From NCBI GenBank assembly GCA_963725665.1, contig CAVRZA010000004.1, forward strand, positions 288,001 through 352,000: a DNA stretch of 64,000 bases, written 5' to 3'. The notes beneath the pieces were generated by a model that had not been told where the DNA came from, did no database searches, and was given only the letters and a program-made list of their open reading frames with translations. The DNA is from an uncultured Actinomycetes bacterium. GTDB taxonomy: Bacteria; Actinomycetota; Thermoleophilia; UBA2241. The stretch's first letter is position 1. Every line of letters starts with the position of its first letter. Below are positions 48,670-53,425 of the stretch, in pieces. The position numbers and the translations under genes were made by a program.

Positions 48670-50079
48670 TCAGAACGCGAAGTCCTCGTAGTGGATGCGC
48701 CTGTCGGGAACACCCAACGACCGTGCCGTCGCGATCAGGTGCTCCATAAAGCCACCCGGACCGCAGACGTAGAGGTCACGATCGACGATGTCGGGCACCA
48801 GCCGGCGCAGGTGAGCCGCGTCGAGCGGCGCCTGCGAGCGCGGTCCGACGACTTCGTGAAGTCGTCCGCCGCGCTCGTCCACGAGCCGTGCGATCTCCTC
48901 CCGAAGGACGAGGTCGTGCTTGGTGGAGCCACGCAGCACGACGACGAGGTCGACGTGATCGGGCAGGTCGTCGAGCATGGCCCGCACCGGGGTCGACCCG
49001 ACGCCGGCGCCGACGAGCAGCACCCTGTCTGTATCACGCATGTGATGGGTGAAAGCGCCGTAGGGTCCTTCGATCGCGACCCGCGTGCCCGGCTTGAGCT
49101 CTGCCAGGGCCGAGCTGTGGTCGCCGACCGACTTGACCGTGATGCGCATCTCGTTCCCCGCCGGCAGAGCCGACAGCGAGTAGGGGTGCGCCTGCAACCA
49201 CATGCCGCGCTTCAAGAAGCGCCAGTGCAGGAACTGCCCGCCCGAGACCGGCAACCGGTCGAGGTTGCGCCCCCGAGTGACGACCGACACGACGCCGGGC
49301 GCCTCGTGTTCGACGCGCACGACCTTGAGCCGATGCCCGAGGCTGCGCACGATCGGCAGGGCGAAACGGTAGCTCAACACGACGCCGGCGGTCAGCAGCC
49401 ACACGCTGATCCAGTAGGCCCGCGCCCAGGGATGACCCAGGAACGGAGCTCCGGTAGCGAGCTGGTGCGTGAACGACAGCGCCGCTGCTAGGTACGTGTA
49501 GAGGTGGACGGCCCACCAGGTCTCGTAGCGCATCTTCTTGCGCACGTTGCGATACGAGGTCGCACCGGCCAGGAAGAACAGACCGAGCGCGGCGGCCGCG
49601 CCGAGCATCCCGGGGAAGGTCGTGACGAGGACGCCGATCTCATGCATGGCGCCGGTCGCGACTCCCTGGGCGTAGCCGAGGGTGATGAAGAGCGCGTGGG
49701 CGGCGATCAGGATGATGATCCAGGGCCCGAGCCGCCTGTGCCAGCGCACGAGCTTGTCTTGCCCGAGCGCCTGTTCGACCGCCGGTATGCGGCCGATCAT
49801 GAGGATGGTCACCAGCATCAGGTACGTGCCGAGCAGACCCGCGACGCGGCCGGCGAAGGTGAGCATGCCGCCCGGCGCGGCCAAATCGTGCGCCGTCGTG
49901 ACGGGCACGACGAGAGCGACGCTGACCGCCGCTCCCAGCCACGTCATCGTGTTGAAGAGGCGTGCCCATAGCTTGTTCGGCCGTGTCGCCTCGGCCCGAG
50001 CCCGGGAGCGCTCACGCGGCCTCCATCGGATCAGTTCGCCGGCGACCTCGGCGGCGCCGGCTTCCGACTCAATGTTCAC
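48670..50079 (-). CDS. Ferric reductase-like membrane protein with FAD/NAD-binding domains
   Basis: Heme His residues (WHR..G, AH, VH.Y, HQL), HPYSLS, EGPYG, GAGVG.TP, YVCGP. Confidence 0.9.
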   Translation of the reverse strand: MNIESEAGAAEVAGELIRWRPRERSRARAEATRPNKLWARLFNTMTWLGAAVSVALVVPVTTAHDLAAPGGMLTFAGRVAGLLGTYLMLVTILMIGRIPAVEQALGQDKLVRWHRRLGPWIIILIAAHALFITLGYAQGVATGAMHEIGVLVTTFPGMLGAAAALGLFFLAGATSYRNVRKKMRYETWWAVHLYTYLAAALSFTHQLATGAPFLGHPWARAYWISVWLLTAGVVLSYRFALPIVRSLGHRLKVVRVEHEAPGVVSVVTRGRNLDRLPVSGGQFLHWRFLKRGMWLQAHPYSLSALPAGNEMRITVKSVGDHSSALAELKPGTRVAIEGPYGAFTHHMRDTDRVLLVGAGVGSTPVRAMLDDLPDHVDLVVVLRGSTKHDLVLREEIARLVDERGGRLHEVVGPRSQAPLDAAHLRRLVPDIVDRDLYVCGPGGFMEHLIATARSLGVPDRRIHYEDFAF

Positions 50080-50154
50080 TGGCCTCAACTCCCTTGTGCG
50101 CGGCGGGGTCGGGACGACCCCGCCGCGCGTCTCTCGTTCACAGGGCTGCGGGGG

Positions 50155-50188
50155 AGTGTAGCCGGGCAAGATGAAGCGAGGATGAAGC
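50155..50188 (-). promoter_or_regulatory. Promoter with OmpR/PhoB-type direct repeats
   Basis: Minus strand GCTTCATC-N3-GCTTCATC-N9-TACACT. Confidence 0.6.
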
Positions 50189-50396
50189 AGCGGTCTCGCG
50201 TTGGCAGTTCAGCGGACTCCGGCCTCCGCCCGTAAGCGCCGCAGCCCAGCTCTCACAGACTGCCCATGACTCCCGCCCAGCCTGGTGCTGATATGGAAGG
50301 ACCTGCTGTCAAGAAGGCAGGCGCAATCGACCTTGCCGGGGGCAGAGGATGGGTGGAGTATGGCGACGGCGGGGGGAGCGCGCCGGGCTCTGTCGT

Positions 50397-50530
50397 CGAC
50401 GCGCGGTCCAAGCTGATATGCGCGGGTTTGGTCATCCGCATGACCGTCTCTGCGTCGGGAGCTGCCGCTTCTCTAAGGTCGAGCGTGGCCCGTGCGCGGG
50501 TTGCTCAATAGCACCAACGCGGATGCTCCT
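50397..50530 (-). ncRNA. Predicted bridge/seek RNA of the IS110 element
   Basis: Two stem-internal-loop modules whose loop segments match the target flanks and the donor junction. Confidence 0.8.
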
Positions 50531-50576
50531 CGCGCGCCCGGCGCGCTCGCCTCGCCGCCTTCCTGCCGACGGTGCT

Positions 50577-51653
50577 CTAGCTCTCCATCACCGCCAGGCT
50601 CCAGCACCAGCCGGCGAGCTCGCGGGCGACCGCCACGGCGGCGACCTTGGAACACTTGCCACGCTCATCGAAGCGCCGCCGGCGACGCTGCAGGCGACGC
50701 TCCGCAAGTCGCGCCCGCTCGCGCACCGTGCCCGCGGCGGCGGCGCGCGCGCGCTGCACGCGCACGCTTCTGCCCGGTGGCCGGCGCTGCTGCCAGGCGG
50801 CCTCGATGAGCAGGCGCCGCGCGTGGCCGTTGCCGGTCTTGGTGATCGCCCCCTGACGCCGCCTCGTCCCGGAGGACTGCTCGCAGGGCACAAGGCCGAG
50901 GAAGGGGCCCAGGCTGCGGCCAGAAAAGCGCTGCCAGTCGCCGATCTCGACGGTGAGCGCGAACGCGGTCAGCGTCGAGATGCCACGCAGACAGGTCAGG
51001 CGCCCGACGACCGGCGCCCAGGGCTCCTTGAGCGCCTCCGCGGCGATCGCCGCGTCGAGGGCGTCACGGCGATCGCGCGCGGCGCACATCGCCGCCAGCC
51101 CCTCCTCATAGGCGACCTGCAATGACGGCTCGCAGAAACGCTGGCGGGCGAGCCACAGCTCGTGTGTCTGTGTCCAGCTGTGCTCCTCCCAGACGATGCC
51201 CCGACGCAAAAGCAGCTTGGCGAGGCGGTGACGGTGGCGCATCAGGTCGCAGCGCGCGTCCTCGCGGGCGCGCACCAGGTCGCGGGCGGCCTCCTCGGCG
51301 AGATCGGGCACCCGTACCGCGACCAGCTCCTCGAGGCGCAGCAGGCGGGCCAGCCGCAGCGCGTCGCGGCGATCGGTCTTGACGCGCTCGCCGGGTGCGC
51401 GCGGGATGCGCGAGAGGGCCGCCACGAGGCAGCGTATCCCGGCCTCGCTCAGAGCGCGGGCCAGGACGTAGCCGGTTGGTCCGGCCTCGCAGGCGACCGC
51501 CTGCGGGCCGGGCTGCGCGCGCACCCAGCCGACAAGCTCCTTGGCGGGCACCGGTGCGGCGAGGCTGCGCACCTCGCCGCTAAGCCCGTCGAGCACTCCC
51601 GCCTGGACCGAGCGGGCGTGCACGTCCAGGCCGATGAACGAACGCTCATGCAC
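50577..51653 (-). CDS. IS110 family recombinase
   Basis: GLDVH, EAGPTG, KTDRRDA (DEDD), GLVP.EQSSG, ITKTGN; TAAGGAGG SD. Confidence 0.95.
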   Translation of the reverse strand: MHERSFIGLDVHARSVQAGVLDGLSGEVRSLAAPVPAKELVGWVRAQPGPQAVACEAGPTGYVLARALSEAGIRCLVAALSRIPRAPGERVKTDRRDALRLARLLRLEELVAVRVPDLAEEAARDLVRAREDARCDLMRHRHRLAKLLLRRGIVWEEHSWTQTHELWLARQRFCEPSLQVAYEEGLAAMCAARDRRDALDAAIAAEALKEPWAPVVGRLTCLRGISTLTAFALTVEIGDWQRFSGRSLGPFLGLVPCEQSSGTRRRQGAITKTGNGHARRLLIEAAWQQRRPPGRSVRVQRARAAAAGTVRERARLAERRLQRRRRRFDERGKCSKVAAVAVARELAGWCWSLAVMES

Positions 51654-51782
51654 ACCGTCGCCTCCTTACGGCCGCGGTCTGCCGTCGCGCCAGCCGCAAC
51701 GGCGACCCGCGCCAGACTATGCACCGGGGGCGACGGGCCGTTCCATATGGTCTAGGGTCCTCTGCAGAAGCAGGCAGTCTGT

Positions 51783-51821
51783 GCCGAACATCATCTACAG
51801 ACTGTTTAATCCTTGTTAGGC
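51783..51821 (+). other. Candidate attI or shortened attC at the head of the cassette array
   Basis: Ends in core site GTTAGGC; GCCGAAC 5' but no attC-like internal stem. Confidence 0.5.
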
Positions 51822-51830
51822 GGGGTAACC

Positions 51831-52298
51831 GTGGGGATCTCACTCCGGCCCGTCGCGGCAGGCGACCAACCGAGCATCGACCGCTGGGCGGCGGTGGCGG
51901 CCGACCACATGTCGCGCACACGTCCCTACGCCGAGGGCGCGGACCGTCACGACCCGGACCGCGGTCTCTTCTGGTATGTGATCGCCGACGGCGGCCGCGA
52001 CCTTGGCACCGTGTGGATTGAGCTGCCTCCGGGCTCCGACGAAGCGGTCCTGGGTGTGTTCCTCGGCGATGCGACGTTCTTCGGTCGCGGCATCGGCGCG
52101 GCGGCCATCGAGCTCGCCGTCGCCGAGTTCCGCGGCGCCCATCCGCAGTTGCCGGTCTCGCTGCGGGTGCGCCGCACGAACCAGCGTGCCATCGCCTGCT
52201 ACCGCCGTGTCGGCTTCGCGGTCACCGGCAGCGGCACCAAGTCGCTGCCCTCTGGCGAGGCCGTCCCCTACTACCGCATGGTCCTCGCGCCGTGCTGA
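51831..52298 (+). CDS. GNAT acetyltransferase (cassette 1)
   Basis: GRGIG, N.RAIACYRRVGF; starts 10 nt after GTTAGGC. Confidence 0.85.
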   Translation: MGISLRPVAAGDQPSIDRWAAVAADHMSRTRPYAEGADRHDPDRGLFWYVIADGGRDLGTVWIELPPGSDEAVLGVFLGDATFFGRGIGAAAIELAVAEFRGAHPQLPVSLRVRRTNQRAIACYRRVGFAVTGSGTKSLPSGEAVPYYRMVLAPC

Positions 52299-52325
52299 GC
52301 TACCCCTCGCGGTGTGCTCCGACCC

Positions 52326-52341
52326 GCCTAGCAAGCGCATC
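52326..52341 (+). repeat. 5' half of an attC site interrupted by IS110 copy 2
   Basis: GCCTAGC-AAGCGCATC, near-complement of cassette start GTTAGGC and similar to the attC at 54861. Confidence 0.65.
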
Positions 52342-53045
52342 ATTGGTGTCAGTCTCTCCCCGTGGGATCCCCTGGCACTCGTCAGGTAGCCTCGGACCCG
52401 ACGGCGGAGTGACCCAAAGCGTTTCTGTCGCCCCCGAGGGGCGGACCGTCAGCTGTATTGTCCCCCGCCGCCGGGATCCGAGGGGTCGCCGACGTGACCT
52501 GATAGGAGCCTGGCCGGAAGGCCCCAGCCAAGGCGTGTCCGCCGGCGGTCCCACTGAGATCGGCTGCAACCGACCAAGGGGGACTGAAGTGATCGTAATC
52601 GGGATCGACCCGCATATGAAGACCCATACCGCCGTGGCCGTCGACGCTGCGAGCGGGCGGACGCTCGCCGAGAAGACGGTGAGCAGCGACCCGCGCGGGC
52701 ACGAGGAGCTGCTTCTATGGGCACGCGCTCTCGGTCCCGAGCGCTGCTTTGCCATCGAGGACTGCCGCCACGTCTCCAGCCGGCTTGAGCGCCACCTGCT
52801 GCCCCGCGGCGAGCGCCTAGTGCGCGTGCCGCCGAAGCTGATGGCGGGCGCGCGCTCCTCGGCGCGCACTTACGGCAAGTCCGACCCCATCGATGCGGCC
52901 TGTGTGGCGCGTGCCGCGCTGCGCGAGCCCGACCTTCCGAAGGCCAGCCTCGCCGGGCCCGAGCAGGACGTGCGCCTGCTCGTCGACCACCGCGACGACC
53001 TCGTCGGTGAGCGCCAGCGCATCCAGAAACGCCTGCGCTGGAACC
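52342..53045 (+). mobile_element. Truncated IS110 element (left non-coding end plus RuvC domain only)
   Basis: About 250-nt structured leader, then IGIDPH, IED, GKSDPIDA; C-terminal domain and right end missing. Confidence 0.85.
52400..52550 (+). ncRNA. Predicted bridge RNA of IS110 copy 2
   Basis: Two loops each framed by GTGACC...TGTCC around an inner hairpin. Confidence 0.65.
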
Positions 53046-53425
53046 TGCAGAATGGCGCTATGTGTTTGCGTGGCATTATCCGCACGGATGAAGTTGGTGA
53101 CTATCGCTTCCGTAGTATCAAGCCAGCAAGCTACCCGATCACCGATGATGGGCCTGTCGGGGGATTGCTGCGAAAACTAGGCCGACATCCTTACCGTCCG
53201 GCCCATATCCACTTTATCGTCTCAGCCGAAGGTTATCGGCCAATCGTCACTCAGATCTTCGCGGAAGGCGATGAGTATTTGGAGTCGGATACCGTGTTCG
53301 GGGTCAAAGACTCGCTCGTGGCAGAGTTTGTTCGGGTGGATTCGGCTGAAGAGGCATCCCATTATGGGTTCCAGCCGCCGTTCTACAAAGTGGAATTCAA
53401 CTTCATCTTGGATAGAGCCAGCTGA
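52589..53425 (+). pseudogene. Chimeric ORF: IS110 N-terminus fused in frame to intradiol dioxygenase C-terminus (cassette 2 remnant)
   Basis: After RLRW the frame reads LRG..RTD..G.Y.F.SIKP.SYP..DGPVG..RPAHIHF; visibly lower GC after about 53045. Confidence 0.85.

Follow-up and report, generated by a model that had tools for sequence, protein, structure and literature searches.

A predicted bridge RNA and its recombinase in an IS1111-group insertion sequence lodged in a repeated promoter-like cassette of an uncultured actinomycete

The DNA analyzed here, hereafter the window, is a stretch of 64,000 nucleotides (nt) from an uncultured Actinomycetes bacterium (Actinomycetota; Thermoleophilia; UBA2241), corresponding to positions 288,001 to 352,000 of the forward strand of contig CAVRZA010000004.1 in GenBank assembly GCA_963725665.1. 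It carries an insertion sequence with a short non-coding end, a recombinase gene on the minus strand and a long non-coding end downstream of that gene (Table 1). The recombinase frame (50577-51653, minus strand) is the only long reading frame in the element that makes sense. We interpret the element as a member of the IS1111 group of the IS110 family, in which the recombinase would be guided by a bridge RNA (also called seekRNA) encoded in the long non-coding end.

We identified the product of this gene using protein domain and family models. The N-terminal RuvC-like domain matched PF01548 with 52 bits (cut-off 29), the C-terminal Tnp domain matched PF02371 with 59.6 bits (cut-off 21.3), and residues 6-354 of 358 matched NF033542, the NCBI equivalog model for an "IS110 family RNA-guided transposase", with 202.8 bits (cut-off 140). 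In a search of solved structures, only ISCro4 (9t56, E = 2.5e-6) and IS621 (8wt6, E = 7.6e-6) were matched. These similarities are distant, and their best stretches lie in the N-terminal domain. Residues D10, E56, D94, D97 and S261-G262 were aligned with D11, E60, D102, D105 and S241-G242 of IS621, whose catalytic roles are described in the available part of PMC11208158; E56 coincides with the catalytic glutamate when aligned to ISCro4 but lies one position beside it when aligned to IS621. The serine motif of the group, written GL-P----S(T)G in the excerpted text of Siddiquee et al. (PMC11187229), is present as GLVPCEQSSG. An earlier annotation made by a model from the letters alone (the original prediction) had described the DEDD residues and the SSG serine as intact, and the alignment to IS621 and ISCro4 bears this out.

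To delimit the element, we relied on unoccupied copies of its target. When the element and its flanks were searched against the host genome (3.73 Mb, 12 contigs), one full copy was returned, together with two further places, on contigs C11 and C2 of the same genome (G000), where the left and right flanks adjoin each other. Both are empty sites, in which the uninterrupted 13-mer TGGTGCTAGGGTC lies within about 95 nt of similarity to the window flanks, and exact matches to this 13-mer in the genome are confined to these two places. Because two uninterrupted copies of the target exist in the same genome, the insertion is precise. Because the empty sites are continuous across the insertion point, the element is limited to 50290-51753 and only CT, the sole sequence common to the flank and the element end, is repeated. 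The insertion is therefore site-specific, with no target duplication beyond the 2-nt core. The pre-insertion site that the original prediction had deduced by removing the element is a real sequence, found uninterrupted at these two other places of the genome.

The layout of the element identifies its group. A perfect 8-bp inverted repeat, read directly from the sequence, lies 1 and 3 nt inside the element ends; it is not among the 25 longest repeat pairs listed for this GC-rich region. The original prediction had assigned the element to IS110, which holds for the family but not for the group, the layout being that of IS1111 and not of IS110 proper as the two are given in the available parts of Siddiquee et al. 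(PMC11187229) and Durrant et al. (PMC11208160). We place it in the IS1111 group because of three features: a long downstream non-coding end (287 nt, compared with 98 nt upstream), subterminal inverted repeats (8 bp, within the 7-17 bp expected of the group) and the order of the guides. This is the reversed order that Siddiquee et al. (PMC11187229) report for IS1111 elements, with gene and RNA here encoded on the opposite strand.

To investigate the downstream region across the family, we compared the element with 80 loci from Actinomycetota, chosen from at least 561 confirmed relatives in species-representative genomes. Their proteins align with that of the window over the full length at 54-70% identity. 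Downstream of the gene, a text pattern detected a common RNA block in 59 of the 81 sequences (window included), consisting of CCGCG, seven hypervariable positions, CUAUGAGCA, a variable hairpin, ACGCUCG, two to four variable positions and UAGA, followed further on by GUC(A/C)U, GCGG, CCCGCG and (N)AU(A/U)UCAG. To offset the bias of selection by pattern, we also built a covariance model, R1, with the window sequence as part of its training alignment. In all 80 related loci, R1 matched immediately after the gene, and these loci include the 22 that the pattern had missed (99-155 bits).

The predicted structure of this RNA is supported by compensatory changes in two of its stems. RNAalifold, applied to 47 distinct aligned sequences, predicted 24 pairs in six helices. 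Paired cells accounted for 99.0% of the total, compared with 94.1% when partners were shuffled and 27.5-40.4% when they were slid, and changes on both sides of a pair were found at eight pairs (69 cells); none of 500 shuffles reached any of these measures. The two stems with such changes are the outer stem of the target loop, GGAG(U/C)/(A/G)CUCC, and the base of the inner hairpin. The donor region surrounds an invariant hairpin, UGCGG/CCGCG. All four stems of the original prediction are present in the window, but one of them, GACGC/GCGUC, is not kept in the family. As a candidate for the closing stem of the family it was rejected: its 5' partner is missing in most relatives, and RNAalifold pairs an invariant GUCG with UGAC.

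Each strand of the target loop extends across the CT core; read together, the two specify approximately TGGTG-CT-AGGGTC. The 5' guide contains the 8-nt target match noted in the original prediction (UGGUGCUA, 50516-50509, minus strand) and reaches nine positions (50517-50509) when one U-G pair is counted. Across the family, this guide is a hypervariable 7-mer between a near-invariant CCGCG, which the text-pattern selection did not demand, and the invariant CUAUGAGCA, and it covaries with the right flank. When the 7-mer was compared with the seven bases after the right-end core, a mean of 4.63 of 7 positions paired over all 43 pairs. Restricting the comparison to the 30 distinct 5' guides gave 4.83 of 7; for these, permuted pairings gave 2.00 (standard deviation = 0.21), and 0 of 10,000 permutations were as high. 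The 7-mer of the window copy forms five Watson-Crick pairs, or six with one U-G. Matched changes also occur in close relatives, in which GAUGGCA is found with TGCCAT, and GAUGGGA with TCCCAG and TCCCAT.

The 3' guide of the target loop follows the left flank over a much shorter distance. Of the 49 loci with a left flank, L076 was dropped as lacking UAGA, leaving 48 pairs. The base before TAG (UAG in the RNA) is the same as the left-flank base in 46 of these pairs, though it is variable (C in 36, T in 10 and G in 2); only L016 and the window copy depart from this. One base further out, agreement with the flank falls to 23 of 48. Of 10,000 permutations, 3 reached the observed mean. The target-guide matches of the original prediction at 50516-50509 and 50480-50473 were recovered in the window, and in relatives the corresponding guides covary with the flanks.

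To gauge chance matches, we shuffled the 287-nt non-coding region 5,000 times with its dinucleotide composition preserved. Across the core, the target was matched by an identical 8-mer in 37 shuffles and by a complementary 8-mer with at most one G-U pair in 918. Against the plus-strand donor, that is, the circle junction, complementary 8-mers were found in 121 shuffles and identical ones in 21. Both target matches were present together in 8 shuffles, and both together with a donor match in none of the 5,000. The complementary target match is weak when taken alone, whereas the combination of matches is not.

The donor guides were examined in the 43 loci in which the element ends could be placed. 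The left end always reads AC(C/G)(G/A)T(T)ATG after an AG core, starting with ACCGTATG, ACGGTATG or ACGATATG, and the right end reads CATATC before AG (AA in two loci). At the variable position 3, left end and RNA are complementary in 42 of the 43 loci (9 C:G and 33 G:C). At the fourth base, left end and RNA stand as G:C in 34 loci, A:C in 7 (window included), A:U in one and G:U in one; in L116, which has the same left end as the window (ACCATATGG), the RNA carries a compensating U that pairs with the left-end A. The segment AGACGGUCA (50449-50441, minus strand), which the original prediction had scored as a 6/9 donor match, is in the right register, but the pairing supported by the family is instead that of ACGGUC (50447-50442), with 5 of 6 positions paired. 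The 8/8 donor match at 50420-50413 is present as described, as are all the other motifs and coordinates that had been reported on the minus strand. The guide for the right end shows no covariation because guide and right end are both almost invariant.

Table 1. Features of the insertion sequence, its predicted RNA and the interrupted target in the window (positions are those of the window)
Feature	Position	Strand	Description
Whole insertion sequence	50290..51753	-	1,464 bp with one copy of the CT core; can also be written 50288-51751
CT core, left copy	50288..50289		AG in gene direction
CT core, right copy	51752..51753		
Short non-coding end upstream of the gene	51654..51751	-	98 nt; starts ACCATATGG in gene direction
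Recombinase gene	50577..51653	-	358 aa; GTG start; AAGGAGG 7 nt upstream
Long non-coding end downstream of the gene	50290..50576	-	287 nt; region of the predicted RNA
Subterminal inverted repeat, right-end arm	50291..50298		ATATGGAA on the plus strand; partner 51741-51748
Subterminal inverted repeat, left-end arm	51741..51748		TTCCATAT on the plus strand
Conserved structured RNA with target and donor loops	50392..50543	-	Covariance model R1, 97.5 bits, E = 8.5e-25
Outer stem, 5' arm	50536..50557	-	Partner 50367-50388
Outer stem, 3' arm	50367..50388	-	22 nt, 91% complementary; also in the single-sequence fold; encloses both loops
Stem GGAGC/GCUCC	50529-50525 with 50462-50458	-	Closes the target loop
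Stem CCGC/GCGG	50522-50519 with 50468-50465	-	Closes the target loop
Stem GAGC/GCUC	50506-50503 with 50484-50481	-	Inner hairpin of the target loop
Stem GACGC/GCGUC	50456-50452 with 50402-50398	-	Particular to the window copy
Target-loop 5' strand UUGGUGCUA	50509..50517	-	Pairs with the target minus strand across the core: 8 Watson-Crick and 1 U-G
Target-loop 3' strand GACCUUAG	50473..50480	-	Pairs with plus-strand CTAGGGTC: 7 Watson-Crick and 1 G-U
Donor-loop 5' strand ACGGUC	50442..50447	-	With core G and left end: 5 of 6 pairs, one A-C mismatch
Donor-loop 3' strand CAUAUCAG	50413..50420	-	8/8 identical to right end and core
TTGACA	50307..50312	-	17 nt before the right-end core
Target, with one alternative base			TGGTGCTA(G/A)GGTC
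Left half of the interrupted target motif	50250..50289	+	Box CACAGACTGCC, then -35-like ATGACT
Right half of the interrupted target motif	51754..51825	+	Remainder of -10-like TAGGGT and two further ACAGACTG boxes; a GNAT acetyltransferase gene follows

On this evidence, we put at about 0.88 the probability that the insertion sequence at 50290-51753 is structurally intact and belongs to the IS1111 group of the IS110 family, with a recombinase and a bridge RNA (seekRNA) of about 150-190 nt that has two guide-bearing regions; this value covers identity and architecture, not activity. The bridge RNA architecture had been the central claim of the original prediction, and it gains from the guides that covary with flanks and ends, from the two compensatory stems and from the R1 matches in 80 of 80 loci.

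A mechanism can be proposed by homology with IS621 (PMC11208160 and PMC11208158, both in excerpt, and PMC13626964) and with the IS1111 elements in the excerpted text of Siddiquee et al. (PMC11187229). The RNA would be made and bound by the recombinase, and the element would leave its site as a circle closed end to end at the core. In the bound RNA, the target loop would base-pair with the two target strands and the donor region with the two strands of the junction, where ACGGUC would pair with the left end and CAUAUCAG would match the right end. Ser261 and the DEDD site would then exchange strands at the core, with no duplication beyond its 2 nt.

Several points weigh against this reading of the element. 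The four helices without compensatory changes, conserved donor-side ones included, are invariant and lend it no support; since they never vary, they count neither for nor against pairing. A closing stem of the donor loop is not conserved in the family, and ATATCAG, nearly invariant in the RNA and in the right end across the family, is uninformative. The aligned loci had been selected by a text pattern requiring several of the "invariant" motifs, the structure was tested on the same alignment from which it was derived, and the related loci are not independent of one another. The single-sequence fold recovers the target-loop stems, with a z-score of -1.99 and 8 of 200 shuffles folding equally well, and because this z-score is weak we do not lean on the fold. 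A search of Rfam over 49800-52300 gave two sub-threshold matches only (E = 0.4 and 0.97), far under the gathering scores. Of the sequencing runs listed for the element, none is recorded as RNA. Among the contigs of four DNA runs that hold parts of the element, none spans the element, joins its ends or restores the empty site. Finally, four points concern the window copy itself: it is the only copy, while two perfect target sites stay empty in the same genome; an extra U in CUAUUGAGCA (place 50507), beside the target loop, is missing from 46 of 46 aligned relatives; the 3' target guide has U instead of C, one of two exceptions among 48; and the RNA has an A-C mismatch to its own left end, the same as in 7 of the 43 loci with the window included.

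These last points bear on whether the copy still moves, a question on which we judge the odds about even. The original prediction is therefore supported in its bridge RNA reading but goes beyond the evidence in calling the copy an active, reprogrammable orthologue. The architecture may be as described and the copy an immobile relic, through its own small changes or a lack of expression, that persists as a fixed disruption of a promoter cassette. We take this alternative seriously, although we do not favor it. It would account for a single copy beside two unoccupied perfect targets, for an extra U that is lacking not only in all aligned relatives but also in a variant from another sample, for a guide U where the target and the variants call for C, and for the mismatch to the left end. 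The variants come from runs X2 and X6 of other studies, in which place 50476 is G; this gives C for the first U of the 3' guide and a perfect GACCCUAG, and the X6 variant is also without the extra U at 50507. The variant contigs have depths of 3.4-6.4. In run X5, a 244-nt piece (50281-50524) is identical to the window, and X5 may be the source sample. Comparison with the variants gives a hint that the two RNA changes of the window copy may be recent.

Other features speak against a relic. The reading frame is full-length and retains all catalytic residues and a ribosome-binding site. The altered guide U still pairs as G-U, and L115 has the same U-for-C wobble at a different site. The A-C mismatch is tolerated, because among the seven loci that carry it are three Rhodococcus copies (L012-L014) at three different sites, whose RNAs show small differences. 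Few copies per genome are the norm in the IS110 family. In addition, R1 matches two copies of a sibling element in the same genome (C6:247975-248117 and C8:217652-217794; loci L002, L003, L143 and L144), which differ at 3 of 1,488 positions and have different flanks. Because these two copies are almost identical in different flanks, the clade has moved in this lineage recently. The sibling flanks are (C/T)CTAG before the element and TAC after it; the corresponding guides, UCCUAG and ACCGUACUA, match them partially, in the same register.

An alternative that we consider improbable is that the downstream region acts as DNA, with internal CATATCAG and the other matches serving as protein-binding sites or alternative ends while the protein chooses the target. 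In its favor, the internal CAUAUCAG repeats the right end letter for letter, and in L088 a right end is joined inside the RNA gene, so that internal sites can recombine. However, two stems with compensatory changes are a signature of RNA and not of DNA sites, and in each loop one guide is complementary and the other identical to its DNA partner, as pairing with both strands predicts. Furthermore, according to the available part of PMC11187229, the RNA of the IS1111 elements tested there co-purifies with the transposase and is needed in trans. Least probable of all is that the matches arose by chance in GC-rich DNA and that the region is merely a 3' untranslated tail: 918 of 5,000 shuffles do hold a complementary 8-mer with one G-U and the z-score of the fold is only -1.99, but 0 of 5,000 shuffles give all three matches, permutations across relatives reach the observed values in 0 and 3 of 10,000 cases, and the RNA is found in 80 of 80 related loci.

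The target lies in a cassette of about 95 nt, in which a -35-like ATGAC(A/T) is followed 16-17 nt on by TAGGGT with TG before it, and three ACAGACTG boxes surround these motifs. The two empty-site cassettes are at C11:457763-457868 and C2:226913-227011. The genes that follow the three cassettes are unrelated: in the window, a GNAT acetyltransferase gene (51813-52298); on C11, a 200-aa frame that reads, from its sequence alone, as membrane-protein-like; and on C2, as the nearest gene, a methyltransferase gene 250 nt further on. Of 60 related genomes searched, 5 contain the cassette, and one of these (G024) has ten matches. A search of Rfam over the two empty target sites gave only terminator-like hairpin matches under the gathering scores. 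We considered the cassette as a structured RNA and rejected this, as the hairpin after the -10-like site has no compensatory changes among the copies compared. The three ACAGACTG boxes would instead be DNA operator-like sites, and the cassette may be the shared promoter/operator of a regulon. On this reading of the motifs, the element sits inside the putative -10-like hexamer and splits it from the -35-like site.

From the comparison of relatives, the element belongs to a well-populated actinobacterial clade in which the scaffold is nearly invariant and the predicted programmable part is a delimited 7-mer. A more far-reaching interpretation would combine two proposals. The clade would have a lopsided guide code, with a 7-nt programmable guide plus a fixed CUA for one strand and approximately one variable base before a fixed UAG for the other, and the window copy, as a still-mobile orthologue from a high-GC host, would take the -10 region of the repeated promoter/operator cassette as its landing site, each landing silencing or rewiring genes of the regulon. 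As a whole, we regard this interpretation as tentative and, if anything, a little less probable than that of an immobile relic.

Elements of this kind are already known, as work from 2024 described guide RNAs of the IS1111 type and predicted them on a large scale. In the available part of PMC11208160, guide RNAs had been predicted for 93% of the IS1111 elements in ISfinder. A screen of 72 orthologues in human cells (bioRxiv 10.1101/2025.05.14.653916) is not described, in the accessible portion of its text, as covering IS1111-type elements, and the word IS1111 is absent from that portion. The closest parallels, likened here by their description, are ISEc11, ISPa11, ISKpn4 and ISPst6 of the IS1111 group (PMC11187229, in excerpt). 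As in our element, they have a downstream non-coding region, subterminal inverted repeats and GL-P----SG; two short RNA segments, one for each target strand, that overlap where the element inserts, the 5' segment being the one complementary to the top strand in gene direction; and a repeated host sequence as the target. In contrast to them, the host here is a high-GC actinomycete, and the element is known from sequence alone. The protein, at 358 aa, is slightly above the 330-350 aa quoted for the IS1111 group in the same excerpt, and the second target guide of the window clade is very short, with reliable covariation at the base before TAG only.

IS621 and ISCro4 of the IS110 group (PDB 8wt6 and 9t56; Durrant et al. 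2024; Hiraizumi et al. 2024) share with our element the DEDD RuvC-like domain, the Ser-Gly of the Tnp domain, the CT core and an RNA with a target loop and a donor loop, each of which reads both DNA strands (for IS621, the available part of PMC11208160). Unlike theirs, the RNA here lies downstream of the gene; gene and RNA are, on our reading, opposite to the strand where the core reads CT; the inverted repeats are longer; and no junction promoter is evident by eye. ISPpu9 and ISPpu10 of Pseudomonas putida (PMC12288879 and bioRxiv 10.64898/2026.03.19.712850, both in excerpt) also insert into one conserved, repeated, intergenic host sequence. They differ from our element in host, group and target, which is a repetitive extragenic palindromic (REP) element there and a promoter/operator-like cassette here.

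Elements annotated as "IS110 family transposase" in Rhodococcus, Pseudonocardia, Microbacterium, Mycobacterium and Streptomyces, on plasmids and chromosomes, belong to the same clade and have the same RNA. They share the ends (ACSRTATG ... CATATC), the AG core and the target TAG, and differ in the 7-nt guides and the insertion sites. The closest DNA relatives that we found have 75-76% identity and come from four genomes of the same taxonomic family (G008, G015, G019 and G028), followed by one at 70% in G031; relatives in plasmid records with the same annotation have 65-71% DNA identity. An exact 22-nt search of Joint Genome Institute (JGI) metagenome contigs returned no copies of the element.

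Although the element leaves what is known of the mechanism unchanged, it offers a clean natural example of RNA-guided transposition, for which sequence alone reveals an occupied site, its two unoccupied counterparts, a sibling element and natural variants of the guides. For tool building, a populated clade (at least 561 relatives) with a delimited 7-mer could serve where a recombinase adapted to a high-GC host is wanted.

Several smaller observations concern the element and its surroundings. The TTGACA in the long non-coding end (Table 1) lies 16-17 nt before the right-end core in the window, L011, L016 and L018, the four sequences counted; the pattern used to place the ends allowed 16-30 nt between them. 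By eye, we found no -10-like hexamer 16-19 nt after TTGACA across the end-to-end junction, where a promoter is expected in the circular intermediates of this group. In the upstream end (51654-51751, minus strand), a hairpin precedes the ribosome-binding site, and relatives have a similar hairpin in the same place, again judged by eye. An Rfam match to p27_CRE in this upstream end (E = 0.4) was dismissed as noise.

Two rearrangements were also noted. In L088 (2638-3300), the RNA gene and the right end are tandemly duplicated, whereas the sister copy L078 is without the duplication; the first right end meets an AG within the stem of the second RNA copy, which has the look of recombination between the element and its own RNA gene. 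In the window, about 540 bp from the element, a single plus-strand frame (52292-53425) joins a truncated IS110-family DEDD domain (residues 103-253, PF01548) directly to the C-terminal portion of an intradiol dioxygenase (PF00775, profile positions 71-181 of 182). These two abutting broken genes suggest an old deletion or rearrangement linked to an insertion sequence.

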